DNA from: Actinomycetes bacterium
Lineage (GTDB): Bacteria > Actinomycetota > Acidimicrobiia > Acidimicrobiales > Bog-793
NCBI GenBank assembly: GCA_021797795.1
Contig: JAJZZB010000004.1
Coordinates: 6,791-70,790, forward strand
Direction of reading: 5' to 3'
DNA length: 64,000 nucleotides
The position numbers and the translations under genes are program-made. Shown in pieces: positions 15,863 through 27,217 of the stretch. Position 1 is the stretch's first letter. Each line of letters begins with the position of its first letter. Under the pieces are notes generated by a model that searched no databases, was not told the origin of the DNA, and saw only the letters and a list, made by a program, of their open reading frames with translations.

Positions 15863-16515
15863 GCACCACCCGGCTGCAGGCCGAGGGCCTGCGCCTGTTC
15901 CTCGGCGAGCGCCAGCTCCTCGACGGCGTCCATCTCGAGGCCAACGGTGGCGAGATGGTCGCGGTGACCGGTCCGTCCGGGGCAGGGAAGTCGACGCTGC
16001 TCCTCGTCCTCGCCGGCGTGCTCAGGCCCGACGAGGGTGCGGTCGCCTACTCGACCGAGGGCGGCGACGCCCCGGTGATCGGCCTCGTCCCCCAGACGCT
16101 CGCCCTCGCAGCAAGCCTCACCGCGGCTGAGAACGTCGCGCTCCCCGTCCAGGTCCGGGGCTGCGACGCGAAGGAGCTGCAGCAGCGGGTGGCCTCCTCG
16201 CTCGAGGCGGTCGGCCTCGGGGCGGCGTCGGACCGGCTGGTCACGGAGCTGTCCGGCGGCCAGCGCCAGCGGGTCGCCGTCGCTCGGGCGCTCGCCATGG
16301 CCCCGGACGTGATCATCGCCGACGAGGCGACCGCCGAGCTCGACGGCGACAACCAGCGGGTCGTGATGGACCTCCTCGAGGAGGAGGCGGGGCGAGGCGT
16401 CCTCCTCGTCCTCGCCACGCACGACTCGCTCGTCGCCGAACGCTGCGGGCGGACCTACCAGCTCGACGGCGGGCAGCTCCTGGCGGCCTCGTCGACCGGC
16501 GGGACGGCCGGATAG
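15859..16515 (+). CDS. ABC transporter ATP-binding protein (canonical motifs)
   Basis: GTG 15859 overlaps the upstream stop (GTGA). Motifs: GPSGAGKST, LSGGQRQRVAVARALA, IIADEATAELD, LATHD. Confidence 0.85.
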   Translation: MSTTRLQAEGLRLFLGERQLLDGVHLEANGGEMVAVTGPSGAGKSTLLLVLAGVLRPDEGAVAYSTEGGDAPVIGLVPQTLALAASLTAAENVALPVQVRGCDAKELQQRVASSLEAVGLGAASDRLVTELSGGQRQRVAVARALAMAPDVIIADEATAELDGDNQRVVMDLLEEEAGRGVLLVLATHDSLVAERCGRTYQLDGGQLLAASSTGGTAG

Positions 16516-16575: not shown

Positions 16576-18012
16576 GTGGACCCACTCGACGAGCTTCGGC
16601 GCGAGACGGCGGAACACGGCTACGGGATCCGGGTCGGCAACGGCAGCGGTGCTCGGGCGGCGTTCGTGCCGCCCGAGCACGGTCTCCTCGTCATCGGCCC
16701 ACCGCGCTCGGGCAAGACCTCGTCGCTCGTCGTGCCGAACGTGCTGTCCGCCTGCGGGCCCGTCGTCGCCACCTCGACCAAGGCCGACCTGCTGCGCGCC
16801 ACCTGCCATGCGCGCTCGCGCGTCGGGGAGTGCCTGCTGTTCGACCCGGGAGGGCGCACGCCACCGCTGGCCGGCGTTCGCACTGTCGGATGGTCGCCGC
16901 TTCTCACCTCCCACGACTGGGACGGCGCCACGTTGCTCGCCCAGACGATGGTGCTGACCGCCCGCCCCGCCTCAGAGCACGGGGAGGCCTACCACTGGAG
17001 CGAGCGGGCACAGGCGCTCCTCGCGCCGGCCTTCCACGCGGCTGCGCTCGACGAGATGGGGATGGCCCGGCTGGCCGCCATGGTCGACCGGCGCCAGGGA
17101 GCCGAGCTTCGAGCCGTCCTCGCCCGCCACGACGTGGAGATCCCTCTTCGCACACTGGAGGGCATTCTCGAGACCGACGAGCGCGAGCAGAGCGCCATCT
17201 GGTCGACCGCCGCCTCCATCCTCTCGGCCTACCGGTCCGAGCGTGCGCTCGCGTCGACCACACCCGAGGGCGTCGACTTCGACGGCCTCGTGAGAGGGGG
17301 AGACACCCTCTACCTCTGCTCGGGGTCCGAGGCGCAGCGCCAGGCCGCCCCGCTCGTCGCCGGGTTGATCCGCGACGTCCGGGCGGCGGCCTACCGGGCT
17401 GCGGCCGTGGGTGAGCTCGGATATGCCTGCGGCTCGCCGCCGCTGCTTCTCGTGCTGGACGAGCTCGCCAACATCGCGCCGCTGCACGACCTGCCCACTC
17501 TCGTCTCAGAAGGGGGGAGCCAGGGCGTGGTGACGCTCGCCTGCCTGCAGGACCTGAGCCAGGCCGTCGCCCGCTGGGGGCGTCTCGGAGAGGGCTTCCT
17601 CAGCCTGTTCAACACCAAGGTGGTCTTTCCCGGCGTCGGCGACACCCGTACCCTCGAGGCCTTCTCCCTCCTCGCAGGCGAGCACGAGGTCGAGTCCGTC
17701 ACCCGCACCGAGGGCGATCGCCTGACGGGGCTCGCCGGCCTGCTCGGTGCCCGCCACCCGCAGCGGCGCAGCGTCGGCACCCGCAAGGAGCGCCGGTTGC
17801 CTGTCGACCTCATCGCCCGCGGGCTCCCGGGTCACGCCCTGTGCATGGACGGGGCATCCCCCTCGTTCGTGGAGATGCGGCCGTGGTGGCGGGACCGGGT
17901 GGTCCGGGCGGCGGCCGGCCACACACCCGGGCAAGCCCGGGAGCGGGGCGGCGCCACCGGGCCGAGCGGGCCCGCGCTCTCGCGTGCCGGCGTCGCACGA
18001 GGAGGTCGGTGA
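16576..18012 (+). CDS. type IV secretion coupling protein-like ATPase (TraD/TraG/VirD4 family)
   Basis: Motifs: Walker A VIGPPRSGKTSSLVVPN, Walker B LLLVLDELANIAP, and a later VTLACLQDLSQ / FNTKVVFPG segment typical of T4CP/TraG-D_C proteins. Confidence 0.75.
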   Translation: MDPLDELRRETAEHGYGIRVGNGSGARAAFVPPEHGLLVIGPPRSGKTSSLVVPNVLSACGPVVATSTKADLLRATCHARSRVGECLLFDPGGRTPPLAGVRTVGWSPLLTSHDWDGATLLAQTMVLTARPASEHGEAYHWSERAQALLAPAFHAAALDEMGMARLAAMVDRRQGAELRAVLARHDVEIPLRTLEGILETDEREQSAIWSTAASILSAYRSERALASTTPEGVDFDGLVRGGDTLYLCSGSEAQRQAAPLVAGLIRDVRAAAYRAAAVGELGYACGSPPLLLVLDELANIAPLHDLPTLVSEGGSQGVVTLACLQDLSQAVARWGRLGEGFLSLFNTKVVFPGVGDTRTLEAFSLLAGEHEVESVTRTEGDRLTGLAGLLGARHPQRRSVGTRKERRLPVDLIARGLPGHALCMDGASPSFVEMRPWWRDRVVRAAAGHTPGQARERGGATGPSGPALSRAGVARGGR

Positions 18013-18029
18013 GGACCCCGCGCCCCGTG

Positions 18030-18785
18030 GGGACTGACGAGCCGGCACCAGTCTCCTGCGGCGCGGTCGACCGTCACGAACTCCGATCTGCCGGGCCCCG
18101 GGGCCGGTCGAAGAGACGACCACGGGGTCGCACGGGACCGATCGCATGCGGGCGGCGAGGGGGACTGGGCTCGCCCAGATGGTCGCACGTCGAGCCCCCG
18201 GCCTCGGCCCGAGCCCGTCGGCGGGACGGCCCTCACCCGGTCGTATCCGTTGTCGGCCACTCTCACCCACCCGTCCGGTGCGACTACGAGATCACGTGAA
18301 GCCCAGCGGCCCGCTCCCTCGCCGTTCGCTCCGCCCCCCACGGCCCGCACCGAGCCGTCTCCGCCGGCGGTGGCGACCCGTTACCGGAGCCGGTCGACTG
18401 CATGCAGCCGGCCCCCGCGCTCGAGATCGCGTCAGGCCGGCCAGAAAGGGTGCCGACCGCCACGCCTCGCCCCCGACGGGATGCCGGTCGCCACGGCCGT
18501 CGAGACGCAACCGGCCCTGTCCCTCCGCCAGATGGCGCCCTGCCTCGGCAGCGACCAGGGCACGCCGCCGTCTTCTGCCACCGCGACGCCGCCGACCGAC
18601 GGCGCCGCGGTGGGCTCACCCGAGGCGGTGCAGAAGGCGCCGTCTCGCCTGCCGCCATCGATCGGGCAGGCGCGGCGGCGGGAGAGCTCGGCTCCTCCGC
18701 TCGCCGGCACACCGGTCGGCGAGCGGGGGCAACCCCGAGTGGCGGTATCGGCGAGACGTGACCGCCCGGCGACTGGAGGTCGCAC
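18030..18785 (-). pseudogene. possible decayed gene (one reading frame with internal TGA and TAA stops)
   Basis: Minus ORFs 18432-18785 and 17832-18350 share one frame and are separated by in-frame TGA (18432) and TAA stops. Codon-position GC periodicity is present at 18481-18720. There are beta-propeller/NHL-like strings (DLVVAPDGWVRVADNGYDRVRAV). GC3 is weaker than in intact genes. Confidence 0.25.
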
Positions 18786-18867
18786 CCGACCGGGCGCGGG
18801 GCGAGGCAGGCGACGTCGAGGATCAGTGGTGCTCGCCTCGGCGCTCCTGCCGGGTCGGGCCCTGGCG

Positions 18868-19221
18868 TCAGGCGCGGCGGAAGCCGAGTGCAGCGGCTGC
18901 GTCCAGCTTCAACATCGACGGGTCCCACGGCGGATCCCACACCACGGTCACCCTCACCTGCCCCGCATCGCCGAGCGCCGCCTCGACGGCCGCCCGGGCC
19001 ATGACGGGAAGGCTCTCCGCTGCGGGGCAGCCGGGGGTGGTGAGCGTCATCTCGACCGCCAGCACCCCGTCCTCCTCGGCGACGGAGTACACGAGGCCGA
19101 GCGAGACCACGTCGAGACAGAGCTCGGGGTCGTAGACCGTCGAGAGCGCCTCGAGGGCACGCTCGACCCGTGCGGTCGTCCCCGCTCCCGGTCCGCCCGC
19201 ACCCTCGACATCGGCGTTCAC
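18868..19221 (-). CDS. DUF59 / SufT-like metal-sulfur cluster assembly factor family protein
   Basis: Typical DUF59 (MIP18-like) strings: VYDPELCLDVVSLGLVY .. MTLTTPGCPAAESL .. VVWDPPWDPSM. The GTG start overlaps the upstream stop (GTGA). Confidence 0.8.
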   Translation of the reverse strand: MNADVEGAGGPGAGTTARVERALEALSTVYDPELCLDVVSLGLVYSVAEEDGVLAVEMTLTTPGCPAAESLPVMARAAVEAALGDAGQVRVTVVWDPPWDPSMLKLDAAAALGFRRA

Positions 19222-19445
19222 GCCGGCCTCCTGAAGGTCACCTTCCAGTCGCCGCCGCCGAGCGACTCGGCGTCGTAGGCGAACCCCTCCGAGGACAACA
19301 CACCCTCGAGCGGCACCGGCTCGAAGGGAGCGAGCACGACGAGATCCTCACCCTCGGAGAGGGCGGCGACCGCCGACATGATCGTGGCGAACGGCTCCTC
19401 GCCCGCCGCCAGGATCGAACGCGCATCGACGATGGCCATGATCAC
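19218..19445 (-). CDS. DUF2249 domain protein
   Basis: 75 aa: IVDARSILAAGEEPFATIMSAVAALSEGEDLVVLAPFEPVPL. This single-domain DUF2249 pattern is repeated in the C-terminus of the 20457-21413 product. SD ggagagaggag lies upstream. Confidence 0.7.
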   Translation of the reverse strand: MIMAIVDARSILAAGEEPFATIMSAVAALSEGEDLVVLAPFEPVPLEGVLSSEGFAYDAESLGGGDWKVTFRRPA

Positions 19446-19477
19446 TCCTCTCTCCCGGGTGCATCGGGAACATTTTT

Positions 19478-19493
19478 TCTAGTCTTAACTAGA
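19478..19493. promoter_or_regulatory. operator site A: tctagtcttaactaga (perfect TCTAGT-N4-ACTAGA)
   Basis: Perfect 6+4+6 palindrome in an AT-rich island, 33 nt upstream of the DUF2249 start (19445, minus strand). Confidence 0.65.
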
Positions 19494-19549
19494 TCTTACT
19501 CGACACTGGGGAGGATGCAAGGGTCGAAGCGGGCCTGGTGAGGCGTTGT

Positions 19550-19565
19550 TCTGGTATAGACTAGA
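19550..19565. promoter_or_regulatory. operator site B: tctggtatagactaga
   Basis: One mismatch to the palindrome. It ends 5 nt before the ATG (19571) of the ArsR-type regulator and contains TAGACT (a TANNNT -10-like hexamer). Confidence 0.6.
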
Positions 19566-19570
19566 TATTC

Positions 19571-20254
19571 ATGGAGACGGCCACGCCGCCCGACGACGAG
19601 CTCCAGCGCGAGGCCCGCGCCCTCGGGGACCCCACCCGGCACCGCCTCTTCCGCTACATCGCGGACGCCCCACAACCCGTCGGCGTGGCGGAGCTCACCG
19701 AGTTCGCCGGGCTCAACCACAATGCCGTGCGCCAGCACCTCGCCATCTTGAGACAAGCCGGGCTCGTCATCGAGGAGACCGAGGCACGCTCTCGTCCGGG
19801 GCGGCCCCGGTTGCTCTACCGCCTGAACCCGGATGGCTCCGGTCGATGGGGGACCGACAGCCCGTACGCGTGGCTGGCACGGCTCTTGAGCGAGGCGGTC
19901 CGCCGCCGGCAGCCGCCACGGGTGGTCGGGCGCCGGGAAGGCCAGAGAGAGGCTGCCCGTGTCGCCGGCACCGCTGATCCCGTCGACCTGCTCGAGAGCG
20001 AGATCACCCAGCGGGGCTTTCGGCCCTCGCGCTCGGAGAAGGGGCAGCGGATCGACTTCCTCCTCGGCCGCTGCCCGTTCGCAGACGTGGCGGAGACCGA
20101 CCCGGCCACGGTGTGCCAACTCCACCTCGGACTCGCCGAGGGCCTCGCCGGGGCGCTCGGCGGCCTCGAAGTGGAGCGGCTCGTCCCGAAGAACCCGCGC
20201 CGGGCTGGATGCCGGCTGAGCCTCCGCCGAGACGCCGGGGCACCTACGAGCTGA
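19571..20254 (+). CDS. ArsR/SmtB-like winged-helix transcriptional regulator with Cys-containing C-terminal domain
   Basis: N-terminal ALGDPTRHRLFRYI .. VAELTEFAGLNHNAVRQHLAILRQAGLV. The C-terminal region has LGRCPFADV .. VCQLHLGLAEGL. Confidence 0.8.
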   Translation: METATPPDDELQREARALGDPTRHRLFRYIADAPQPVGVAELTEFAGLNHNAVRQHLAILRQAGLVIEETEARSRPGRPRLLYRLNPDGSGRWGTDSPYAWLARLLSEAVRRRQPPRVVGRREGQREAARVAGTADPVDLLESEITQRGFRPSRSEKGQRIDFLLGRCPFADVAETDPATVCQLHLGLAEGLAGALGGLEVERLVPKNPRRAGCRLSLRRDAGAPTS

Positions 20255-20384
20255 GCGGCGATCCGGCGCACGCGCCGGTCGCGCCGGTCCGGTTGTCGGG
20301 TCCCGGGCCTTCCACACGCGACCGGACCGAGCGGCGGGGCCTGGGGACCCGGAGACGCCACACACCGCGCGCTCGCGGAAAGCA

Positions 20385-20413
20385 GGCGGCCCGTGCACGG
20401 GTCGCCCTTTTTT
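20385..20413 (+). terminator. intrinsic terminator after the regulator gene
   Basis: Stem ggcggcccg / cgggtcgcc (9 bp with one G-U), loop tgca, followed by a run of six T (20408-20413). This is the only classical hairpin-plus-T-run seen in the window. Confidence 0.6.
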
Positions 20414-20428
20414 CTAGTATCTGTTAGA
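20413..20428. promoter_or_regulatory. operator site C: tctagtatctgttaga
   Basis: The left half is perfect and the right half is GTTAGA. It lies 29 nt upstream of ATG 20457. It shares the 11-mer ttttttctagt with site A. Confidence 0.55.
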
Positions 20429-20456
20429 TTTACACGGCAACAGACGAGGAGGAGAG

Positions 20457-21413
20457 ATGACCGTCACCGACACCGAGGCCTTCGAGGCCATGGTGAGACA
20501 CCACCGCCAACTGCTCGAGGACGTCGCCGGGGCGGTGACCGGCCTCGGACGCGCCGTGGCCGAAGGCAGCTCCTACGAGCGGTCCGCTGCGGAGCTCGTG
20601 GCCGTCATCGCCGGGGAGGTGCTGCCGCACGCCCTTGCCGAGGAGGAGTCGATCTACACCGCCGCCTCGGGACTCGCCGAGCTCGCTCCGCTCGTGAGAG
20701 AGATGTCCGGCGAGCACGCCGAGCTCGCCGCCATGACCGAGCGGATCGCCACCGCCTCTGACGGTCCGGCCGCCGCCGGCGAGGCCGCCGCCTTCCAGTC
20801 GCTGTTCGCCCGCCACGTCGACAAGGAGAACGAGCAGATCCTCCCGGCCCTGGCACGCGACCCAGGAGTCTCGCTCGCCGGTCTTCTCGAGCAGATGCAC
20901 AGCCGCCTCGTCGCCTCGGGCGCCGACGACCGCACCGGCGAAGGGCCCGGGCTGGAGGATCGCCTCGTCGAGCTTCTCCTCGCCGCCGCCGACGAGCTCG
21001 TCGGCTCGGGAGAGGGTGATCGGGGCTGCCGCCTGGCGGCGTCCACGTGGGCAGCGCTGCGGACGGCTCGCCCCGACCTCGCCCAGAAGGTCACCGCCGC
21101 CCTCCACCGCCTCGCACGCGCCGTCCCCAGCGCGCCCGTCTCGCTGCAGGCGCGCCACGGCGAGCTTCCGGTCATGCCGGTGCTCGACGTACGAGAGCTC
21201 GCCCCTGCGCGGCGCCACGAGGCGATCTTCGGCGCCTTCGACGCGCTCGCACCACAGGGCCGCTTCGTGCTCGTGAACGACCACGACCCGAAGCCGCTCC
21301 GCTACCAGTTCGAGGCCGAGCATCCCGGCGAGTTCAGCTGGGAGTACCTGGAACGAGGGCCGCGCACCTGGCGGGTGCGGATCGGGCGCGAGTCCGCCGT
21401 CCACGCAGGCTGA
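20457..21413 (+). CDS. hemerythrin (HHE cation-binding) domain - DUF2249 fusion protein
   Basis: SD aggaggagag is 1 nt before the ATG. Hemerythrin-like His/Glu motifs: MVRHHRQLLE, LPHALAEEE, FARHVDKENEQILP. C-terminal DUF2249: VLDVRELAPARRHEAIFGAFDAL .. FVLVNDHDPKPL. Confidence 0.75.
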   Translation: MTVTDTEAFEAMVRHHRQLLEDVAGAVTGLGRAVAEGSSYERSAAELVAVIAGEVLPHALAEEESIYTAASGLAELAPLVREMSGEHAELAAMTERIATASDGPAAAGEAAAFQSLFARHVDKENEQILPALARDPGVSLAGLLEQMHSRLVASGADDRTGEGPGLEDRLVELLLAAADELVGSGEGDRGCRLAASTWAALRTARPDLAQKVTAALHRLARAVPSAPVSLQARHGELPVMPVLDVRELAPARRHEAIFGAFDALAPQGRFVLVNDHDPKPLRYQFEAEHPGEFSWEYLERGPRTWRVRIGRESAVHAG

Positions 21414-22860
21414 CACCGCTGCGGGCGGGGTCCCCGACGGTGGGATCCCCGCCCGTGCACCGCGTGGATCCGCTCCCGCCCTCGCCGGCGAGCTCGGGTG
21501 ATGGGAGCCGGCGCGGCTTCAGCATCAACAGCGGCGTGAGGGAGAGGTTCACCGCGGTGACGAGGCCGGTCACGGCGAGCAGCGCGCCGGCGGCCACGGT
21601 CGCTGCCGGGAGCCGTCCGGCCAGTCCGGCGCAGAGCGCGGCGACGGCGGTGGTGACGGTCAGGTGGGAGAGCCCGGCCGCCCGGCGGGAGTAGAGGTCG
21701 GCGAAGGCGAGCGGGCGCCCCGAGGGCCCTGTCGTGACGCCCCGGGAGCGAAGAGCCGTCCAGACGACGAAGGGCACGACCTTGTGAGCGTGGCCGACGA
21801 GAGCTTCGAGCAGCCAGCCGGCGAAGGCGGCGACAGAGGCCGCCACGAGCGCCACGCCCTCTCTCTCGTCGCCCGGCAGGACGAACGCGCCCGCCAGCGC
21901 GAAGCCAGCGCCGACGGGGAGCCATGCGGCCGAGGTCAGGACGTAGGCGAGATGCAGGTCGGCACGCCGGCGTCGGTGGGCGACGTAGGTGGCGAGCGAG
22001 ACGAGGTGGGCCACGAGGCCGACACCGGCGAGGGCGGCGCCGGCTGCGGCGAGCGGGACGATCCCGAGCAGCACCCCCGGCGCGGCGAGCGCCACCCCCG
22101 CCGGGAGGGCGAGAACCGCGACCGATCCCGCCCGGTGCCGGCCGGGGAGGTGGGCGAGGAAGAACATCGGCCACAGCTTCTCGGCGACGGCGACGTAGCT
22201 GAGGCCGAGCCACCAGAACAGGCCCACGAGCGCGTGAGCGAGGACGACGTGCCCGGACAGCTCGAACCAGCGCCCACTCCGGTCGACCAGGAAGACGAGG
22301 CCGAAGCCACCGGTGAGGGCCAGTCCGACAAGGGCGAGTCGCAGGCCCACGACCTCCATGCCCTTGCCCCGAACCGAGAGCGGCGCCGAGAGGTTGGCGA
22401 GGATGACGGCGAACGCCACTCCTGCGAGGCCTCCACCGGCTCCGATGAGCCACTCGTGACCGAGTGCGAAGCCGAGGGGCAGGGACCAGGACGCCGCCGT
22501 CCAGGAGGCGAAGGTCATCCAGGCGAGACGGATCGAGCGCAGCGGGCGGCCGGTGACCACCGGCACGAACTGGTGCATGGCGCCGAGCACGCCCGTCGAG
22601 AGCGTCGCCAGCAGGCCGAAGTGGGCGGCGGCCACGACCGGATCGGCGGTCGGGTCCCCGGCGGCGGCGGTGCCTGCGAGCGCCAGGGTCACCCCGCAGG
22701 CGGCCAACCCGAGCGCGGCGGCCGCGAAGAACGCCAGCGGGACCGACGGCGGGGGGACCGCGCCGGGCACGCCGGCGGGGCGCCCCTGCCAGCTCCCCGA
22801 TCCCTGCGTCCCACTCGCCTGCGGGCTGGTGTCGCTCATCGGCCACTCCTCCTCGCTCAT
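21334..22860 (-). CDS. polytopic membrane protein with conserved-looking His motifs (heme-copper-oxidase-subunit-I/NnrS-like, unassigned)
   Basis: 508 aa with about 12 or more hydrophobic spans. His motifs: AAHFGLL..GAMHQFVPV, GHVVLAHALVGLFWW, FFLAH, VGHAHKVVPF. It overlaps the 3' end of the convergent gene by 80 nt. Confidence 0.7.
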   Translation of the reverse strand: MSEEEWPMSDTSPQASGTQGSGSWQGRPAGVPGAVPPPSVPLAFFAAAALGLAACGVTLALAGTAAAGDPTADPVVAAAHFGLLATLSTGVLGAMHQFVPVVTGRPLRSIRLAWMTFASWTAASWSLPLGFALGHEWLIGAGGGLAGVAFAVILANLSAPLSVRGKGMEVVGLRLALVGLALTGGFGLVFLVDRSGRWFELSGHVVLAHALVGLFWWLGLSYVAVAEKLWPMFFLAHLPGRHRAGSVAVLALPAGVALAAPGVLLGIVPLAAAGAALAGVGLVAHLVSLATYVAHRRRRADLHLAYVLTSAAWLPVGAGFALAGAFVLPGDEREGVALVAASVAAFAGWLLEALVGHAHKVVPFVVWTALRSRGVTTGPSGRPLAFADLYSRRAAGLSHLTVTTAVAALCAGLAGRLPAATVAAGALLAVTGLVTAVNLSLTPLLMLKPRRLPSPELAGEGGSGSTRCTGGDPTVGDPARSGVSLRGRRTRARSAPARCAALVPGTPS

Positions 22861-22866
22861 CGATAT

Positions 22867-22882
22867 TCTAGTCTAGGCTAGA
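22867..22882. promoter_or_regulatory. operator site D: tctagtctaggctaga
   Basis: One mismatch. It starts 7 nt upstream of the membrane-protein ATG (22860, minus strand). On that strand it reads TCTAGCCTAGACTAGA, with TAGACT 9 nt before the ATG. Confidence 0.6.
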
Positions 22883-22988: not shown

Positions 22989-25169
22989 TCACCTGCCGAG
23001 TGCCCCACGGCCCGGAGCGTCCCGCCCCGGGCCGCGACGCTCGAGACCCGTGCTCCTCGACGCTTCTTCTCGCCCGCCGGCGATGCGCTCCGCCCGGAGC
23101 ACCAGCGGGGGTGCGCCCGCGTCGCCAAGGTGGTGGCCGGAGAACCAGGTCCGCTCCGCACGATCCCGCCAGGCTGCACGACCGCTCGGATCGACAGGAG
23201 GGCGGCCGAGGGCGGCGGCGAGAGACGGCGGCCGGACCGCCTCGAGAAGTCGCCCGAGGGTCGCGCCGGTGGGAGCAACGAGGACATGGGTGCGCTCGAC
23301 CCGTTCGAGCATGGCGGGCGAGACCTCCAACGGGGCGACGCCACCCACCACGACGAGCTGACGGACGCCGTCCCGCCCGCTTCCGGCCAGCTCCGAGCCG
23401 ACCCGCCGGGCGTCGACGACAGGGCACCTCGCCGCCAGGGCGGCCGCCAGAGCGCGATCGGCCACGGCGACGACCGACGGCCTGTCCGCCCCGGTCCCCG
23501 CCAGCTCGAGGACCTCCTCGCAGGCAGACGAGGCGTCTGCCACGAGACGGACCTCCACCCGGTCGCCAAGCTGTGTCCGCCCGGCGGTCGCCCGAGCCGG
23601 CCGTCCCGACCCCGGTTCGAGCGGCCTGGCCTGCTCGAGCACGCGCTCGAACAGGAGAGAGCACTCGAGCGAGCTGCGGCCGGCAAGCAGGACCGCCGAC
23701 GCGCCGGTGGCGGCACAGGCGCCGAGGGCCGAGGCGACCTCGTCGTGGAGCATCCTCCCGGCATCTGCCAGCACAAGTCGATCTCCGGTCACAAGCGACC
23801 CGGCCAGCTCGGAGACCCTCGCCACCGGGAACGTCTCGATGCCGGTGGCCGACTCGAATCCCCTGGCGGCCCGGCCCCCGGGGGCGAGCGCCACGACCCG
23901 CCCTGCCCCGCCGGCGAGGCGGGCGGCGGCATCGAGCGCCCCGAGACGCTGCCGTGGCCCGTAGCAGAGGAGCTCGGCGCCGGTCAGGCGCAGCTGCTCC
24001 GCGAATTGGGCGGCGGCGGCCCGGGCGGAGCGGAGGTGGGCTGGCGTGGTGAACCGCTCACCGACCTTGGCCACCGCCGCACTGGCGAGCACCTTGTCGA
24101 CGTCGCCCGCGATCTGCTCGATGGGGGCGCCCCCACGGAGGCTCGAGGCGCGGGCGACGAGGAGCGCGTCCCGGTCGAAGGTGCCATCGACCCACCCGGC
24201 TCCGGTGAGCCATGAGAGGTCCCCCCGCGGGATCCGGCCGTCGGCGCCACCGTGTCCTTCGGCGCGCCCTCCGGCAGCCTCGGCGACCCGGCTGGCCGAC
24301 AGCCCGAGCCGGTGGCCGCGTTCCAGCCATTCCTGGCGCAGCGCGTCGTAGGGTCGGGAGCGGTCCTTTGGTGGGCGGAGCGCTTCGGCGACCACCGTGT
24401 GGGCGGCGGGGCCGCGCAGGCCCTCCGCCCGGAGCGCCGCCTCGATGATCCGGCTCTGGCGCGAGAACTCCCGCACCGCAGCCCTCGAGACACCCACCAC
24501 CTCGGCGTAGTCGCGGCGCACGGGACCGAACGCCACCCCACCTCGTGAGAGCTCCCAGCGCAGCTGTGCCTCGAACAGCGCCCGCAGCGGGCGCTGGGCG
24601 CGGTAGATCCTGCGGCCGTCGAGGGCACCCCACTGCCCGTCTGCCGCCTGCGCCAGGTTGGCGATCAGCACGTGGGCGTGAAGGTGCGGGTCGTTCGCCC
24701 TGCTCGTGCGATGGGGGAAGCAGGCCGCCACGACACCGTCGAGCGCGAGCGTCGAGACGACGCCAGCGCGGCGACGGCGCGTCCTCGCGATCTGCTCCTC
24801 GAGGTAGCCGATCGTGGCCTCGACGGCGGCCCGGTGGGCACTCTCGACACGTCGCGAGACCGCCGGATCTCCGAGCCCGCACAGCAGGCTGACCGACTTC
24901 GGAGCCGACAGGACGACATCGAAGCCAGCGACGGCACCGGTGCGGGCCGCCTGCCGGCGGAGGCGCTCACCGGTGCTCGGATGGCGACCGGTGCACACCG
25001 CCCGCACCTCGGAGGGGACCGGGGTGGCGATCAGCCCGAGCGCTTCGCAGCCTCGGCCGAGCCAGTACGGGTCCGGCTCGACGAGCCCTTCGGGCCGGTC
25101 GGTCGTCGAGCGGACGGTGCCGAAGTAATAGCGCTCGGCACCCTGGCGGACCTTGGCGATGCGCAGCAT
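22989..25169 (-). CDS. MobF-family (TrwC/TraA-like) relaxase with degenerate helicase-like C-terminal half
   Basis: MLRIAKVRQGAERYYF is motif I with a Tyr pair. FDVVLSAPKSVS is present. HRTSRANDPHLHAHVLIANL is the His-triad motif III. ATG 25169 is preferred over the track start 25202. Confidence 0.8.
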   Translation of the reverse strand: MLRIAKVRQGAERYYFGTVRSTTDRPEGLVEPDPYWLGRGCEALGLIATPVPSEVRAVCTGRHPSTGERLRRQAARTGAVAGFDVVLSAPKSVSLLCGLGDPAVSRRVESAHRAAVEATIGYLEEQIARTRRRRAGVVSTLALDGVVAACFPHRTSRANDPHLHAHVLIANLAQAADGQWGALDGRRIYRAQRPLRALFEAQLRWELSRGGVAFGPVRRDYAEVVGVSRAAVREFSRQSRIIEAALRAEGLRGPAAHTVVAEALRPPKDRSRPYDALRQEWLERGHRLGLSASRVAEAAGGRAEGHGGADGRIPRGDLSWLTGAGWVDGTFDRDALLVARASSLRGGAPIEQIAGDVDKVLASAAVAKVGERFTTPAHLRSARAAAAQFAEQLRLTGAELLCYGPRQRLGALDAAARLAGGAGRVVALAPGGRAARGFESATGIETFPVARVSELAGSLVTGDRLVLADAGRMLHDEVASALGACAATGASAVLLAGRSSLECSLLFERVLEQARPLEPGSGRPARATAGRTQLGDRVEVRLVADASSACEEVLELAGTGADRPSVVAVADRALAAALAARCPVVDARRVGSELAGSGRDGVRQLVVVGGVAPLEVSPAMLERVERTHVLVAPTGATLGRLLEAVRPPSLAAALGRPPVDPSGRAAWRDRAERTWFSGHHLGDAGAPPLVLRAERIAGGREEASRSTGLERRGPGRDAPGRGALGR

Positions 25170-25240
25170 GCCGAAGCGTCCCCGCACGGCCTCACGCTCC
25201 ACCTCTCCTCGCTCTCCCGGCCCGCCTACCGGGTGACGGC

Positions 25241-27217
25241 TCAGTCCGGGCGGTACCGGTGCAGTGCCCGCTCGGCGGCATGCCCGGGCACCTGCCTCAG
25301 CTCCGGCGGGGAGAGCACCTCGGTCCCCGGCCCGAGCCGGAGCAGCAGTCGTCCGAACCAGCCCTCGGCGTCGCCGACCAGGATGTCGGCGGCGAGGCGG
25401 CCGTCGGACAGCTGCTCGATCGGCGAGGCTGCGACCTGGTCCACCCCGAGCTCGGAGGCGGGCGGGAACGCGATGCGGGCCTTCACGGTGTTCGGGCCCC
25501 CGAGGAACGCGAAGGGGCCGGCGAGCGCCTCGTCGAGCGACTCGGGCGACTCGAAGGAGACGCCCGTGCCACGACAGCTCGTGACCCGGTCGACCTGGAA
25601 TCGGCGGAGGTCACCGACGAGGTGGCAGAACCCGTCGAGGTACCAGCGACCCTCCCGCAGCACCACCTGATAGGGGTCGACCTGGCGGAGCGTCGCCTCG
25701 GTCGCGGAGCCAGAGAAGTACCCGATCTCCACCCGCTCGCGGAGATGGGCCGCCTCCTGCAGCTCGCGCAGGTGTGCGGGCTCGGGCACCTCCATCGAGA
25801 AGCGGGACTCGCCGAGCACCGACTCGAGCTTGGCGAGCGCCGAGCGCAGCGCACCCTCCTCGTCGGCCCCGGCGACCTCGAGGAGTGCCTTGGCGGCCGC
25901 CGCCAGGGCAAAGCCCTCCTCTGGGCTGAGGCGGCGGGGCCGGGCGAGGTGGCCGAGGCCGAAGGCCGACACCCTGTCCCCTTCGACGATGAGCTCGATC
26001 AGCTGGTCGGGGGTGTAGGGCGGCACGCCGCAGCAGGCCGCCAGCTCGAGGTCGTGGACGAGCTCCTCCTCGCTCATCTCGAAGCGCCGGGCGAGGTCGC
26101 CGATCTCGGCCTCCTGCACTCGGGCGAGGTGGACGAGCACGGCGAGCAACCGGCGTAGGCGCGCACCGGCGACGGGCACCGCCGAGGCGCCGGCGAGGCG
26201 CCGGCGCGTGCCACCGGCCTCGCCGGAGCTGGTGCTCGTCACCTGCGGGGGCTCCCCGCCGGGCGCCGTCGGCCCGCCCGCCATGGCCGAGAGCCGGGCG
26301 ACGACCGCTTCTCTCAACGGTGCCGGCGCCCTCACGACGGCTGCGTCCCCGAGTCCGGCCGCCCAGGAGACGAAGGCGTCCTCGTCGCCGACGGCAAGGT
26401 GGAGAACGACGCCGCCCTCGTCAGTCCAGCGGGCGACGGCGGATCCGGGGACGAGCGACGCCACCTGCCGGGCGAGGCGGGGGTCGATCTCGACCTCGGC
26501 CATGGGATGGGCATCCACCGGGTCGCCACCGAAGGGAAGGAGGTTGATCTCCGCTCCGAGGTCGAAGTCCGGCGGCGGCTCGAAGCCACCCGGCTCGCCG
26601 AGCACCGGCTCGCTCTCGAAGCGGTCGACCCGGAAGGTGCGCATGGCGCCTCCCTCGCCGCTCGTGCGGTCGCGGGCGACGAGGTACCAGGCGGCCTGGC
26701 GGAAGGTGAGCCCGTACGGCTCGACCTCGCGCCCACGGCCGTGGTAGCCAAAGCTCAGCGTGGCGGCCCGCCTCAGCGCCTCGTGCACGGCTCCGAGCGC
26801 CGGCACCGAGGGCAGGACGGCGATCGGCGCGTCGAGGCGCGTGCCGAGCCCGTGGCCGAGGGTGGACAGGGCGTCCTTCCCGGCGCTGCCACCGAGCTTC
26901 ACGGCTGCCACGGCGAAGGCGAGGGCCGTGGCCTCGGTGTCGTCGAGGCCGAGCTCGGGGAGGTAGTAGTCCTCGGGCCGGACGAGGTAGCCGATCTGCT
27001 CCTCGGCCTCGATGGGCGCCGTCGCCACCGGCACGCCGAGCTCGCGAAGCGCCCGCTTGTCCCGTTCGAAGGCCTGGCGGGCCGTCTCCTTGCCCTCCGG
27101 GTAGCCCTGCACCTTCTCGCGGATCTCGCGCAGCGACAGCGGCCGCTCGGTGTCGAGCAGCACGAGCATCAAGTTGGTGAGCCGCTCGAGGCGGTCGTGA
27201 CGCGGGGGCGGGGGCAC
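25241..27217 (-). CDS. pafBC: fused PafB-PafC-type HTH-WYL-WCX transcriptional regulator
   Basis: There are two tandem HTH+WYL units. Unit 1: RLERLTNLMLVLLDTERPLSLREIREKV .. FRQAAWYLVARD. Unit 2: RLRRLLAVLVHLARVQEAEIGDLARRFEMSEEELVHDL .. VVLREGRWYLDGFC. GTG start. Confidence 0.75.
   Translation of the reverse strand: MPPPPRHDRLERLTNLMLVLLDTERPLSLREIREKVQGYPEGKETARQAFERDKRALRELGVPVATAPIEAEEQIGYLVRPEDYYLPELGLDDTEATALAFAVAAVKLGGSAGKDALSTLGHGLGTRLDAPIAVLPSVPALGAVHEALRRAATLSFGYHGRGREVEPYGLTFRQAAWYLVARDRTSGEGGAMRTFRVDRFESEPVLGEPGGFEPPPDFDLGAEINLLPFGGDPVDAHPMAEVEIDPRLARQVASLVPGSAVARWTDEGGVVLHLAVGDEDAFVSWAAGLGDAAVVRAPAPLREAVVARLSAMAGGPTAPGGEPPQVTSTSSGEAGGTRRRLAGASAVPVAGARLRRLLAVLVHLARVQEAEIGDLARRFEMSEEELVHDLELAACCGVPPYTPDQLIELIVEGDRVSAFGLGHLARPRRLSPEEGFALAAAAKALLEVAGADEEGALRSALAKLESVLGESRFSMEVPEPAHLRELQEAAHLRERVEIGYFSGSATEATLRQVDPYQVVLREGRWYLDGFCHLVGDLRRFQVDRVTSCRGTGVSFESPESLDEALAGPFAFLGGPNTVKARIAFPPASELGVDQVAASPIEQLSDGRLAADILVGDAEGWFGRLLLRLGPGTEVLSPPELRQVPGHAAERALHRYRPD

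Follow-up and report, generated by a model that had tools for sequence, protein, structure and literature searches.

Results

Organization of the locus

The genes described here lie in a 64-kb window (the whole stretch of DNA that was analysed), where they are flanked by a gene for a TraG/TraD-type coupling protein on one side and by a TrwC relaxase gene on the other. The locus comprises five genes and one terminator-like element:

18868–19221, minus strand: DUF59/FeS_assembly_P protein, 117 aa (Pfam PF01883, E 3.8e-18); second gene of a DUF2249-DUF59 operon
19218–19445, minus strand: stand-alone DUF2249 protein, 75 aa (Pfam PF10006, E 8.5e-16)
19571–20254, plus strand: transcription regulator, 227 aa (Pfam HTH_20/HTH_5, ArsR-type)
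20385–20406, plus strand: terminator-like GC hairpin followed by T6, between the regulator gene and the hemerythrin-DUF2249 gene
20457–21413, plus strand: hemerythrin-DUF2249 fusion, 318 aa (Pfam)
21334–22860, minus strand: polytopic membrane protein with 12 predicted TM segments, 508 aa; assigned to the heme-copper oxidase (HCO) superfamily, non-canonical 'HCO homology' (HCOH) type

The five open reading frames and their domains had been proposed in an initial annotation, and both were confirmed by ORF analysis and by Pfam and NCBIfam searches. The same annotation had allowed for three or four transcription units, and the count is four. The stop codon of the DUF2249 gene overlaps the start of the DUF59 gene by 4 nt, and the hairpin with its T6 tract implies that the regulator transcript is separated from the hemerythrin-DUF2249 gene. 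For the membrane protein, the true start is most likely the second ATG (22839, M8), because a Shine-Dalgarno sequence (GAGGAGGAG) precedes it and gene callers likewise yield a protein of 501 aa. The final ~50 residues of this protein are not conserved, and its gene overlaps the convergent hemerythrin gene by 80 bp.

A putative operator precedes every transcription unit

The palindrome TCTAG-N6-CTAGA occurs upstream of all four transcription units, including that of the regulator itself:

19478–19493, no strand: putative operator O1, TCTAGTCTTAACTAGA; perfect arms, in the divergent promoter region between the DUF2249-DUF59 operon and the regulator gene
19550–19565, no strand: putative operator O2, TCTGGTATAGACTAGA; one mismatch, 6 nt 5' of the regulator ATG
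20413–20428, no strand: putative operator O3, TCTAGTATCTGTTAGA; one mismatch, 29 nt 5' of the hemerythrin-DUF2249 start
22867–22882, no strand: putative operator O4, TCTAGTCTAGGCTAGA; perfect arms, 7 nt 5' of the ATG at 22860 and 28 nt 5' of that at 22839

These four sites compare with 0.26 expected in the window, and none of 100 shuffled sequences reached four. Across 80 loci, 121 sites were found versus 11–15 in shuffles, and 97 of the 121 lie no more than 400 bp 5' of a module gene. The extended form of the palindrome spans 16–24 bp (TW-nn-TCTAGT-nTAn-ACTAGA-nn-WA), and positions outside the search pattern are conserved as well, with T at -3 in 80% of sites and A or T at -2 in about 99%. 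The placement of O2 just 5' of the regulator ATG implies autoregulation, and the regulator genes of many species are preceded by a corresponding site, one arm of which reads CCAGA. Thirty-eight sites lie upstream of hemerythrin-DUF2249 orthologues in other species.

The regulator joins an ArsR-type winged helix to a V4R-like domain

The regulator consists of an ArsR-type winged helix (residues ~7–93; NF033788, 46.9 bits) and a divergent, V4R-like domain (~98–220). Foldseek searches with an AF2 model (pLDDT 81) matched the N-terminal domain to ArsR/SmtB/Phr proteins, including CzrA, and the C-terminal domain to Bet3/TRAPP structures (1wc8, 2j3r). The assignment of the C-terminal domain is a weak one, with a TM score of about 0.4 to Bet3 and a faint match to V4R (PF02830, E 0.024) in three of 11 family members.

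The Cys motifs noted in the initial annotation are present and conserved: C168, C182 and H185 are retained in 37/37 orthologues and C214 in 35/37. However, these residues reside in the V4R-like domain, and no classical metal site of the ArsR alpha3 or alpha5 type was identified in this protein. Instead of sensing redox state, the conserved Cys/His residues may simply hold a structural Zn ion or provide a binding site for a small ligand or metal.

The membrane protein is a non-canonical member of the heme-copper oxidase superfamily

Searches with the membrane protein against Pfam and NCBIfam yielded no match, and its more than 500 homologues are all annotated as 'hypothetical'. Its AF2 model (pLDDT 74.5, pTM 0.75) contains 12 helices and indicates an HCO fold. 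The nearest structures by Foldseek are NorB (3o0r_B, 4xyd_A), the cbb3 subunit CcoN (8smr_E) and subunit I of ba3 oxidase. A family profile searched against the PDB matched CcoN (E 1e-10) and NorB (E 9e-4), and distant family members exceed the Pfam COX1 threshold. These results bear out a likeness to HCO subunit I or NnrS that had been suggested from His motifs alone.

Only two of the six canonical HCO His ligands are preserved, namely H80 in TM2 and H209 in TM6, whereas the His-His pair of TM7 and the His-x-His motif of TM10 at canonical depth are missing. A role as a true oxidase or NO reductase was therefore rejected, and we place the protein in the non-canonical 'HCO homology'/NnrS-like group.

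Conservation of His residues, which had been named beforehand as a test, was upheld in an alignment of 196 unique relatives, and all of the His motifs quoted earlier are present and mostly conserved. H80, H237, H285 and H357 are invariant, and H96 (195/196), H303 (194/196) and H204 (188/196) are nearly so. At position 209, 151 sequences have His and 45 have Met (23%); at position 359, 171 have His and 22 have Tyr. The family-specific set H96, H237, H285, H303 and H357 maps to the cytoplasmic half according to conservation and topology (positive-inside count 23 versus 3), and the clustering of these residues is suggested by topology only. Tyr occupies the positions corresponding to H96 and H359 in cbb3 and in distant relatives, and these two extra His residues may be structural rather than metal ligands.

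The soluble proteins

The fusion protein carries a hemerythrin domain (residues 9–132, E 7e-14) with a complete set of di-iron ligands (H16, H58-x3-E62, H87, H120-x3-E124) and a C-terminal DUF2249 domain (242–311, E 6e-31) of the His type (H254, H276, H289). Among 44 orthologues, C191 and H217 of the linker domain are also conserved. Its nearest solved relative is the mycobacterial hemerythrin-like protein 6q09 (E 0.017). The stand-alone DUF2249 protein belongs to a type that lacks His and Cys and carries an APFEPVPL motif. In the DUF59 protein, Cys65 of the TTPGCP motif is kept in 67/67 orthologues. Its NCBIfam match to SUF_assoc scores 90 bits, below the cutoff of 143, and matches to PaaD and SufT are weaker. 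DUF59 proteins such as SufT, CIA2 and PaaD work in the maturation of metal centres.

The core of the gene set recurs across phyla

Co-occurrence of the genes in other genomes, also set beforehand as a test, was observed in dozens of species. Loci were counted at species level, and in the 44 that extend at least 5 kb to either side of the membrane protein gene, this gene is accompanied by DUF2249 plus DUF59 in 39, by hemerythrin-DUF2249 in 33 and by the regulator in 24; the complete five-gene set is present in 21, and 41 have DUF59 no more than 8 kb away. A distant sample of 82 loci from Verrucomicrobiota, Chloroflexota and Bacillaceae has the single-strand gene order DUF2249 -> HCOH -> DUF59 -> DUF2249, with DUF59 directly 3' of the membrane protein gene in 80 loci and DUF2249 present in 71. 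One protein (P0215) is an HCOH::DUF59 fusion whose gene is abutted upstream by a DrpB-like DUF1858-2xDUF2249 gene. Altogether, about 160 species-level loci from several phyla carry these combinations. We conclude that the five genes form a real and probably co-regulated system, the core of which is shared by several bacterial phyla.

Some of the carriers are acidophiles that cycle iron. Cultured organisms with these genes include Acidiferrimicrobium sp. IK and Aciditerrimonas ferrireducens JCM 15389, and the core operon is present in Virgibacillus spp.

Operator-linked genes in other genomes

In other species, the operator also precedes narG (TIGR01580, 1500 bits), an FNR-like reductase gene together with an AhpD-like gene, and a 1-Cys peroxiredoxin gene. 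The FNR-like reductase shares the operator with the module in at least eight species and is found in the flanks of 19 of the 80 loci, compared with 15 for AhpD-like genes. Chloroflexota operons run on into bona fide NnrS (38.6 bits, gathering score 28) or hemerythrin genes, and Crp/Fnr regulator genes adjoin the operon in Bacillaceae, where MobB does so too, and in locus L089. This context lends indirect backing to an earlier proposal linking the genes to O2, NO or damaged iron centres. The window itself contains no narG, FNR-like reductase or AhpD gene, so the link to nitrate rests on other genomes only.

Only 11 of the 80 loci have an adjacent narG, which counts against a tie to nitrate respiration. 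Some species also have operator-linked genes for an HMA-like protein (E 7e-4) and for a small membrane protein that matches CopD weakly; these hints of copper suit a metal-trafficking function equally well.

Discussion

A possible function in protecting metal centres

We hypothesize that the five genes constitute one repressor-controlled regulon for defence against redox or nitrosative stress and for metallocentre maintenance, tied to nitrate respiration. This is our preferred reading, and we place about half of our confidence in it. On this reading, the module probably shields metal centres from nitric oxide or oxidants while the cell respires nitrate. The regulator would bind the palindrome as a repressor, as its position and the precedent of the archaeal protein MsvR suggest, and by the same precedent would release the DNA once its thiol/His site is oxidised, nitrosylated or demetallated. 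In the membrane protein, H80 and H209 may, as in NnrS, coordinate haem with or without Cu close to the outer face, and the cytoplasmic His face could serve as a docking site for soluble partners. These partners would be the two DUF2249 modules as TusA-like adaptors, the DUF59 protein as a Cys-bearing maturation factor for Fe-S or other metal centres, and the di-iron hemerythrin with its fused His-type DUF2249. Acting together at the membrane, the proteins might bind or reduce NO or oxidants derived from O2, and iron centres damaged by nitrite or NO from nitrate respiration would be re-metallated or protected. In many species, electrons probably come from the operator-controlled FNR-like NAD(P)H flavoreductase.

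Alternative explanations

An unlikely alternative, though the best of those considered, is that the module traffics metal (Cu/Fe) or haem and inserts cofactors. The HCO-like protein would then be a membrane conduit or platform, DUF2249, DUF59 and hemerythrin would be cytoplasmic chaperones or donors, and the regulator would sense metal in the usual ArsR/SmtB manner. Its DNA-binding domain does resemble ArsR/SmtB proteins (CzrA and SmtB by Foldseek), and Cys2-His is a typical metal site; however, this site lies in the V4R-like domain rather than at the classical positions. The His/Met exchange at position 209 and the many invariant His residues are typical of Cu(I) or haem ligands and of ion pathways, but no transporter with an HCO fold is known. 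The maturation role of DUF59 proteins and the iron-cycling acidophiles among the carriers fit this explanation, as do the HMA-like and CopD-like genes, although those signals are weak and the module is most strongly associated with narG, NnrS, Crp/Fnr, FNR-like reductase and peroxidase-type genes rather than with metal pumps.

We find it quite doubtful that the HCO-like and DUF2249 proteins form a membrane-anchored signalling complex that senses nitrate, nitrite, NO or O2 and feeds back on respiration regulators, with no part in detoxification or repair. Hemerythrin domains often serve as O2/NO sensor modules. The model follows a proposal for DrpA (DUF2249) and the membrane-associated DrpB (DUF1858 plus two DUF2249), which modulate nitrate respiration in Thermus and, by genetic evidence, tune DnrS/DnrT and nar expression in a nitrate-dependent way (PMC6282519). 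The DrpB-like gene abutting the HCOH::DUF59 gene and the Crp/Fnr genes adjoining some operons agree with such a role. On the other hand, the module already has its own dedicated one-component regulator and operator, so that adding another sensor made of several proteins is less parsimonious. The near-obligate DUF59 gene and the peroxidase and reductase members of the regulon point to chemistry, and none of the partners in the examined loci has a fused output domain (kinase, GGDEF or HTH).

It is improbable that the module is a new type of catalytic NO or O2 reductase fed from the cytoplasm, in which NAD(P)H would supply electrons that travel via the FNR-like flavoprotein and then the di-iron hemerythrin to a haem or metal site of the HCO-like protein, where NO or O2 would be turned over. 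NorB and CcoN are the closest structures, and the invariant His residues of the cytoplasmic half would suit this route. The FNR-like reductase resembles the reductase domains of Hmp, PaaE and BenC, and its combination with a di-iron protein and DUF59 parallels PaaABCDE, whose PaaD models match the DUF59 protein. Nevertheless, four of the six canonical ligands are absent, no subunit II, cytochrome c or quinol-site partner accompanies the protein, and the reductase gene is missing from the window and from most loci. To our knowledge, NnrS, the nearest studied relative of the membrane protein, has no demonstrated NO reductase activity either.

Chance proximity or mobile-element cargo without a common function, suggested by the conjugation genes on both sides, is refuted by the co-occurrence and operator statistics and by the HCO-like::DUF59 fusion, and such genes flank the module solely in the window and its closest relative (L008), leaving this explanation a negligible probability.

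Comparison with known systems

The initial annotation regarded the gene set as having no experimentally defined function, and this holds for experiments; in silico, however, the membrane protein family and its link to DUF2249 had already been noticed (Pei et al. 2014, reference 36 of PMC11218638; Rodionov et al. 2005, PMC1274295). DUF2249 genes are induced during haloarchaeal denitrification by up to log2FC 8.65 (PMC11218638), and part of the NO resistance of V. cholerae is due to NnrS (PMC3345576). The regulator appears to be a bacterial analogue of MsvR, with an HTH domain joined to a V4R-like domain that carries Cys motifs. COG4309 is presumably equivalent to DUF2249. COG4309 genes belong to NsrR/NnrR regulons and are co-transcribed with norB (PMC1274295), and MsvR, likewise composed of HTH and V4R domains, is a Cys-dependent, redox-sensitive autorepressor acting on an inverted repeat (PMC3729527).

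The five-gene module and its transcription units

All five open reading frames proposed in the initial annotation were recovered with unchanged coordinates, and the domains assigned to them were matched by Pfam. The genes of the module are as follows:

18868-19221, minus strand: DUF59 protein (PF01883, FeS_assembly_P), 117 aa; Pfam E 3.8e-18
19218-19445, minus strand: stand-alone DUF2249 protein, 75 aa; Pfam E 8.5e-16
19571-20254, plus strand: regulator with an ArsR-type helix-turn-helix (HTH), 227 aa; Pfam HTH_20 and HTH_5
20457-21413, plus strand: hemerythrin-DUF2249 fusion (Hr-DUF2249), 318 aa; Hemerythrin at residues 9-132, DUF2249 at residues 242-311
21334-22860, minus strand: membrane protein, 508 aa as called

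The G+C content of the window is ~73%. A 4-nt overlap joins the DUF2249 and DUF59 genes, and a terminator-like hairpin with a T-run (20385-20406) lies between the regulator and hemerythrin genes. Because this element separates the two genes, we count four transcription units, where three or four had been anticipated. For the membrane gene the second ATG (22839) is the probable start codon; it is closely preceded by the Shine-Dalgarno sequence GAGGAGGAG, and public gene calls give a product of 501 aa. The final ~50 residues of the membrane protein lack conservation and have low model confidence. An N-terminal segment, GRPxGxPGxVPPPSVP, is conserved. The membrane and Hr-DUF2249 genes are convergent, with an 80-bp overlap (21334-21413) that covers this non-conserved C-terminus.

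Genes for a TraG/TraD-type type-IV coupling protein (16576-18012, plus strand) and a TrwC relaxase (22989-25202, minus strand) flank the module. Two adjacent ABC-transporter ATPase genes (14900-16515, plus strand) lie 5' of the coupling-protein gene, and the second of these is syntenic, together with the coupling-protein gene that it adjoins, in the closest related locus (L008; L-numbers denote related loci in other genomes). A gene for a PafBC-like regulator of 658 aa (HTH_PafC, two WYL domains and WCX; 25241-27217, minus strand) adjoins the relaxase gene. The ~850 bp between the coupling-protein and DUF59 genes (18013-18867) carry no coding signal, with GC3 values of ~0.75-0.79 in all frames. 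This stretch is only 72% identical to its counterpart in L008, with tblastx pieces that shift frame, and may represent either a decayed gene or DNA that is non-coding.

The membrane protein has the fold of heme-copper oxidase subunit I

More than 500 close homologues of the membrane protein were found, mostly in Acidimicrobiia and Streptosporangiaceae-like MAGs, and every one is annotated as 'hypothetical'. Searches of Pfam (E <= 0.01) and NCBIfam gave no match, a direct sequence search of the PDB returned nothing useful, and the protein was placed only by fold and profile searches. An AlphaFold (AF2) model made with 28 homologues (pLDDT 74.5, pTM 0.75) has 12 transmembrane (TM) helices. When this model was compared with the PDB by Foldseek, a check suggested in the initial annotation, the top 24 matches were all subunit I of heme-copper oxidases (HCOs) or NO reductases (NORs), each with probability 1.0. 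The top structures include NorB (3o0r_B and 4xyd_A), the cbb3 subunit CcoN (8smr_E, with the highest TM-score, 0.54) and ba3. The protein also carries the motif [HY][QK]xxP as three repeats. Model, structural matches and repeats together identify a 12-TM subunit-I fold with three-fold pseudo-symmetry.

An exhaustive profile search yielded 941 relatives. The Pfam COX1 model (PF00115) is not matched by the window protein itself (E <= 0.01), and its threshold of 34.8 bits is passed by the full-length distant relatives P0191, P0193 and P0202 (63.9, 41.3 and 35.3 bits, respectively). A profile of 51 diverse members searched against the PDB detected CcoN of cbb3 (E 1e-10) and NorB (E 9e-4). In the profile alignment the first repeat of the query falls on the CcoN unit TM9-11, H80 is placed opposite the second His of 'HVH', and the likeness to HCOs is greatest for the TM9-12 unit.

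Only two histidines are invariant across the broad alignment of relatives, H80 in TM2 and H209 in TM6. At the centre of the module is thus a membrane protein with an HCO fold and two of the canonical ligand positions, as mapped by profile alignment and pseudo-symmetry rather than by coordinate superposition. Four ligands of the canonical six-His set of HCOs and NORs (TM2; TM6; His-His in TM7; His-x-His in TM10) are missing: TM7 contains no His, and TM10 has none at a depth equivalent to H80 and H209. Residues H357 and H359 lie ~25 residues into TM10, toward the cytoplasm. Because the TM7 His-His pair and a TM10 His-x-His at canonical depth are absent, the protein is no oxidase or NOR proper, and this candidate was rejected with four of six ligands lacking. 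Membership in NnrS was rejected as well, since PF05940 is unmatched. Of the resemblance to HCO subunit I or NnrS-type proteins noted at the outset, the HCO fold therefore stands, and assignment to oxidases or NORs proper, or to NnrS itself, does not.

The non-canonical 'HCO homology' (HCOH) families, as Pei and colleagues are said to have defined them, have 12-TM members, including NnrS, with two conserved histidines. The membrane protein matches this definition, with 12 TM helices, two conserved histidines and a homology detectable only by sensitive methods. In PMC11218638, Pei et al. 2014 (Protein Sci 23:1220; reference 36 there) is cited for a link between DUF2249 and the HCO superfamily.

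Branch-specific histidines and topology

Conservation of the membrane-protein histidines, which the initial annotation had marked as a point to check, holds in the family alignment, with four of them invariant.

Table. Histidines of the membrane protein in the narrow family (196 unique sequences)
H80, H237, H285, H357: invariant
H96: 195/196
H303: 194/196
H204: 188/196
H209: His in 151, Met in 45

The exchange of His and Met at position 209 is typical of axial ligands of haem or Cu. Lys and Arg residues number 23 in the predicted cytoplasmic loops versus 3 in the outer loops, which indicates an N-in topology as in HCOs. In this topology H80, H204 and H209 lie close to the outer face, and the cytoplasmic half contains H96, H237, H285, H295, H303, H357 and H359. 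Residues H96 and H359 occupy pseudo-symmetric [HY][QK]xxP positions where cbb3 and the distant relatives have Tyr, and for this reason the proposal that the cytoplasmic His cluster is a clear second metal site is weakened. Some histidines of the cytoplasmic half need not be metal ligands.

The gene set is conserved beyond the window

A first scan, with one genome per species, covered 230 relatives, and the best 80 loci were analysed. Linkage was counted in the 44 of these 80 loci that have at least 5 kb on either side, with a feature scored within 8 kb. The recurrence of the gene set elsewhere, on which the initial annotation had staked its proposal, is borne out most clearly by the DUF2249 and DUF59 pair that accompanies the membrane gene.

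Table. Features linked to the membrane gene in loci with full flanks
DUF2249 and DUF59 pair: 39/44
Hemerythrin-DUF2249 gene: 33/44
Regulator sharing the same C-terminal domain: 24/44
Complete five-gene set: 21/44

In the most frequent order, seen in 47 cases within 700 bp, DUF2249-DUF59 is divergent to the membrane gene. Cultured carriers of the module include Acidiferrimicrobium sp. IK and Aciditerrimonas ferrireducens JCM 15389 (L009 and L076).

A second scan for distant relatives (25-45% identity) covered 393 relatives, of which the best 80 loci, from Verrucomicrobiota, Chloroflexota and cultured Bacillaceae (Virgibacillus, Ornithinibacillus and Cerasibacillus), were combined with L088 and L089. 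Using HMMs from the actinobacterial partners, DUF59 was found immediately 3' of the HCOH gene in 80 of these 82 loci and DUF2249 in 71, usually on a single strand in the order DUF2249, HCOH, DUF59, His-type DUF2249. In the distant relative P0215 the HCOH and DUF59 proteins are fused, and a DrpB-like gene (DUF1858 plus two DUF2249 domains) abuts the fusion on its 5' side (L088:1703-4077). The gene order in L089 is HCOH, Crp/Fnr regulator, DUF59, molybdopterin oxidoreductase and hemerythrin. Two Chloroflexota loci have a DUF2249-HCOH-DUF59 operon followed either by a bona fide NnrS gene and a cupin gene (L094:7456-8988) or by another HCO-like gene, highly divergent, together with a hemerythrin gene (L090:3905-6355), and a Crp/Fnr regulator gene and MobB accompany the Virgibacillus locus. 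This recurrence demonstrates that the HCOH/DUF59/DUF2249 triad is conserved in Actinomycetota, Chloroflexota, Verrucomicrobiota and Bacillaceae, and the hemerythrin-DUF2249 fusion and the ArsR-type regulator belong to the actinobacterial branch.

Neither conjugation gene was seen in any locus examined other than the window and, for the coupling protein, L008. Cargo of a mobile element was rejected as a general explanation for the module because conjugation genes adjoin it solely in these two loci; in the window they may represent a remnant or an integrated conjugative or mobilisable element that carries the module.

A putative palindromic operator and a probable extended regulon

An AT-rich palindrome, TCTAG-N6-CTAGA, is present in every module promoter region of the window. 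The four copies of this putative operator are located as follows:

O1, 19478-19493: divergent DUF2249/regulator region
O2, 19550-19565: 6 nt 5' of the regulator ATG
O3, 20413-20428: 29 nt 5' of the hemerythrin gene
O4, 22867-22882: closely 5' of the membrane gene

Only 0.26 sites are expected in the window, and four were attained in none of 100 shuffles. The 80 loci of the first scan contain 121 sites with at most one mismatch, compared with 11-15 in shuffles, and 97 of the 121 lie within 400 bp 5' of a module gene: 38 precede the hemerythrin gene, 26 the DUF2249 gene, 18 the regulator gene and 15 the membrane gene. The sequence logo widens to a 24-bp palindrome, TWnnTCTAGTnTAnACTAGAnnWA, whose flanks fall outside the search pattern and so provide independent support for the operator. 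These findings establish a conserved, co-regulated module.

Hairpins at 19453-19469 and 20385-20406 are GC-rich, end in a T6 run and share the sequence TTTTTTCTAGT; each precedes an operator (O1 and O3, respectively), and the one at 19453-19469 is not 3' of any plus-strand gene.

Orphan sites, those outside the module genes in the 80 loci, precede genes for a reductase, an AhpD/CMD-family protein, narG, a 1-Cys peroxiredoxin, a cNMP-binding protein and small membrane proteins. The reductase is FNR-like with FAD/NAD(P)-binding domains, resembles the reductase modules of PaaE, BenC and flavohaemoglobin, and carries the operator in eight species. In L048 (2589-2604) a site lies between divergent AhpD/CMD-family and FNR-like reductase genes, an arrangement repeated in L011, L014, L032, L034, L042, L055 and L074, and both genes are probable members of the regulon. 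The operator also lies directly 5' of narG (TIGR01580, 1500 bits) in three Acidimicrobiia-type genomes (L018:11390-11405, L075:11409 and L056:2906). Of the 80 loci, 11 have narG in their flanks, 19 the FNR-like reductase gene and 15 the AhpD-like gene. None of these additional genes is present in the 64-kb window.

The regulator combines an ArsR-type HTH with a cysteine-bearing C-terminal domain

Roughly 2,000 homologues of the regulator at about 70% identity all carry generic annotations. The HTH is of the ArsR-type winged class (HTH_20, E 2.7e-9; HTH_5, E 5e-7), with NF033788 matched at 46.9 bits against a cutoff of 55. Among the homologues C168, C182 and H185 are invariant and C214 is nearly so, all of them outside the HTH domain (residues 168-214). 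The regulator therefore has a Cys2-His site, and the putative operator overlaps the module promoters.

The AlphaFold model (pLDDT 81) comprises a winged helix (residues 7-93) and an alpha/beta C-terminal domain (98-220). Foldseek matches the former to ArsR, SmtB, CzrA, Phr and HlyU, and also returned Bet3/TRAPP structures (1wc8, TM-score 0.40 over 149 columns, and 2j3r). The V4R domain of prokaryotes is a homologue of Bet3 (PMC2253512). Matches to V4R (PF02830) are weak, occurring in 3 of 11 regulator C-terminal domains with a best E of 0.024. The C-terminal domain of the window regulator gave no Pfam match, V4R included, and its profile gave none in the PDB at E <= 10. Identity with SufR was rejected: TIGR02702 matches weakly (24.9 bits, cutoff 178.8) and only in the HTH (residues 39-95, model positions 18-74 of 208). 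Given this restriction to the HTH and the V4R/Bet3-like character of the C-terminal domain, a [4Fe-4S] sensor becomes one option beside a thiol, Zn or Fe site.

By analogy, the closest characterised design appears to be MsvR, described as restricted to methanoarchaea, which joins an HTH to a V4R domain with three conserved Cys residues, recognises TTCG-N7-9-CGAA in its own promoter and in those of its targets, represses when reduced and leaves DNA when oxidised (PMC3729527). The two proteins have in common an N-terminal HTH, three conserved Cys residues in the C-terminal domain, an inverted-repeat operator (putative here) that is present at their own promoter, divergent gene arrangement, and di-iron and oxidative-stress genes as targets (predicted here). 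They differ in that the regulator is bacterial rather than archaeal and matches V4R weakly, in Cys spacing (C168-x13-C182-x2-H185...C214 versus C206/C232/C240 in MsvR) and in the invariant His of its motif.

The soluble partners

The hemerythrin domain of Hr-DUF2249 (PF01814, Pfam E 7e-14) has the full H...HxxxE...H...HxxxE set (H16, H58/E62, H87 and H120/E124), kept in 42-44 of 44 orthologues. Its linker domain (residues 141-238) has no Pfam match and contains the conserved residues C191 and H217. The fused DUF2249 carries H254, H276 and H289, and the stand-alone protein has neither Cys nor His. Both belong to PF10006, scoring 106.6 and 58 bits, respectively, against a gathering threshold of 29.5. 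Support for a TusA-like fold comes from a DUF2249 orthologue of Virgibacillus, which scores above the TusA (PF01206) threshold as well. In DUF59, Cys65 is invariant. The N-termini of the soluble partners, read directly, show no signal peptide. The partners of the membrane protein are cytoplasmic proteins with a di-iron site and a reactive Cys.

A possible role in defence against NO and oxidants

We hypothesize that, during nitrate respiration, the module serves to detoxify NO or oxidants or to repair iron centres. The regulator would act as a redox- or NO-sensitive repressor, the membrane protein may hold haem, or haem plus Cu, like NnrS, which is a haem- and copper-containing membrane protein, and the soluble proteins could dock on its His-rich cytoplasmic face. 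Nitrite is converted chemically to NO at low pH, and such protection would consequently be valuable for acidophilic carriers. We take COG4309 to be DUF2249. COG4309 genes are co-transcribed with norB and belong to NsrR and NnrR regulons (PMC1274295), and NnrS is part of the NO-resistance regulon of V. cholerae (PMC3345576). The literature on COG4309, DUF2249, DrpA/DrpB and NnrS fits defence against NO or oxidants.

One rival reading is the trafficking of metal or haem. A small membrane protein (~130-170 aa), often encoded divergently from the hemerythrin gene under the same operator (L021:10898-11215, L023:7887-8192, L045:80-589 and 10 further loci), has a weak CopD match in L004, and an HMA-like CxxC protein is encoded 3' of a perfect operator in L012 (13199-13789); these hint at a copper connection. 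A second rival is a true NO or O2 reductase fed from the cytoplasm, to be weighed against the same retained and missing ligands that bear on the oxidase assignment.

It is also conceivable, and in our estimation improbable, that the DUF2249-HCOH-DUF59 triad, with hemerythrin in Actinomycetota, constitutes a mechanistically new, previously unrecognised membrane metalloenzyme system under an MsvR-like repressor. The HCO-fold protein would then operate from the cytoplasmic side, where a family-specific His site of the inner half, possibly including the pseudo-symmetric H96/E227/H357-359, would take metal or electrons from the soluble di-iron and Fe-S-handling partners, and the outcome would be NO/O2 reduction or the rebuilding of damaged iron centres. 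If true, its function and electron-entry route would be unlike those of every characterised oxidase or NOR, and its repressor would be the first V4R redox repressor of the MsvR-like kind in bacteria.

Aerobic respiration and denitrification both depend on the HCO superfamily, whose non-canonical branches, NnrS and HCOH, are widespread with unexplained biochemistry. Here, one HCOH branch is nearly always encoded beside DUF59 and one or two DUF2249 proteins across four bacterial groups (Actinomycetota, Chloroflexota, Verrucomicrobiota and Bacillaceae), which places three domains of unknown function in a shared, concrete context and nominates cultured carriers for experiments. The actinobacterial branch offers a complete, testable regulon with three invariant candidate sensor residues, a sharp operator and, in some species, a narG target, and would extend the MsvR-type V4R design of redox regulator, given a weak V4R match, from methanogens to bacteria. 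If, as the detoxification reading proposes, the module shields nitrate-respiring acidophiles from nitrite-derived NO, it would matter for the flux of N-oxides through peat, mine and geothermal environments.

Comparison with known systems

The family and its DUF2249 link had already been noted in silico, and NnrS, MsvR, RIC, SufT and DrpAB are analogies. We know of no study of any component of the module. To our knowledge, the new elements are the near-obligate DUF59 partnership (fusion included), the branch-specific invariant histidines with the His/Met ligand polymorphism, the hemerythrin-DUF2249 fusion within a defined regulon, the operator with its tie to narG, and the MsvR-like bacterial regulator.

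The membrane protein shares with NorB (3o0r), CcoN (3mk7 and 8smr) and ba3 (1ehk) the fold, the N-in topology and the TM2 and TM6 histidines. Unlike HCOs and NORs, the module has no subunit II, NorC or CcoO/P partner, and the partners are instead soluble cytoplasmic proteins. With HCOH proteins and NnrS it shares the 12-TM three-repeat HCO fold and a genomic association with DUF2249 and N-oxide metabolism, and true NnrS is co-operonic with HCOH in Chloroflexota. The actinobacterial branch differs from HCOH in six or seven added invariant histidines, mostly in the cytoplasmic half, and in the His/Met alternation at the TM6 ligand. As far as we know, the published description of HCOH does not include the near-obligate DUF59, the hemerythrin fusion, the dedicated regulator or the operator.

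DUF59 shares the PF01883 domain and a conserved Cys with SufT and PaaD, matches the SUF_assoc, SufT and PaaD models and, like PaaD, occurs with a di-iron protein, joined in some species by an FNR-like reductase. However, it falls under every equivalog cutoff (SUF_assoc TIGR02945, 90.1 versus 143.4 bits; TIGR03406, 72.9 versus 202.6 bits) and lies outside suf and paa operons, with no suf genes among the module's neighbours. Its genomic tie is rather to an HCO-like membrane protein, and in P0215 the two even form a single protein.

The di-iron protein for 'repair of iron centres' (RIC/YtfE/ScdA) is represented by dnrN in PMC1274295. Hr-DUF2249 resembles RIC in pairing a full-ligand, di-iron hemerythrin-type domain with a small accessory domain in a context of N-oxide stress. 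The domains form a network of DUF1858-Hr (RIC), DUF1858-DUF2249 (DrpB) and Hr-DUF2249 (the window protein). Unlike RIC, the window protein has the order hemerythrin, linker with C191/H217 and DUF2249; Pfam found no ScdA_N/DUF1858 in it, its hemerythrin domain is N-terminal, and RIC membership was not detected at the sequence level.

A Drp-like sensing complex is the remaining rival. DrpA and DrpB modulate nitrate respiration in Thermus thermophilus, where DrpA is reported to be periplasmic (PMC6282519), and DUF2249 genes are strongly induced during denitrification in the haloarchaeon Haloferax (PMC11218638). As in the module, His-bearing and His-less DUF2249 types coexist in these systems, in which DUF2249 is tied by genetic and transcriptional evidence to nitrate respiration and denitrification, and a DrpB-like gene abuts the HCOH-DUF59 fusion gene in L088. 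On the other side, the DUF2249 proteins of the module lack the signal peptide that a periplasmic location like that of DrpA would entail, one of them is fused to hemerythrin, and neither an HCO-like partner nor DUF59 has been described for Drp.
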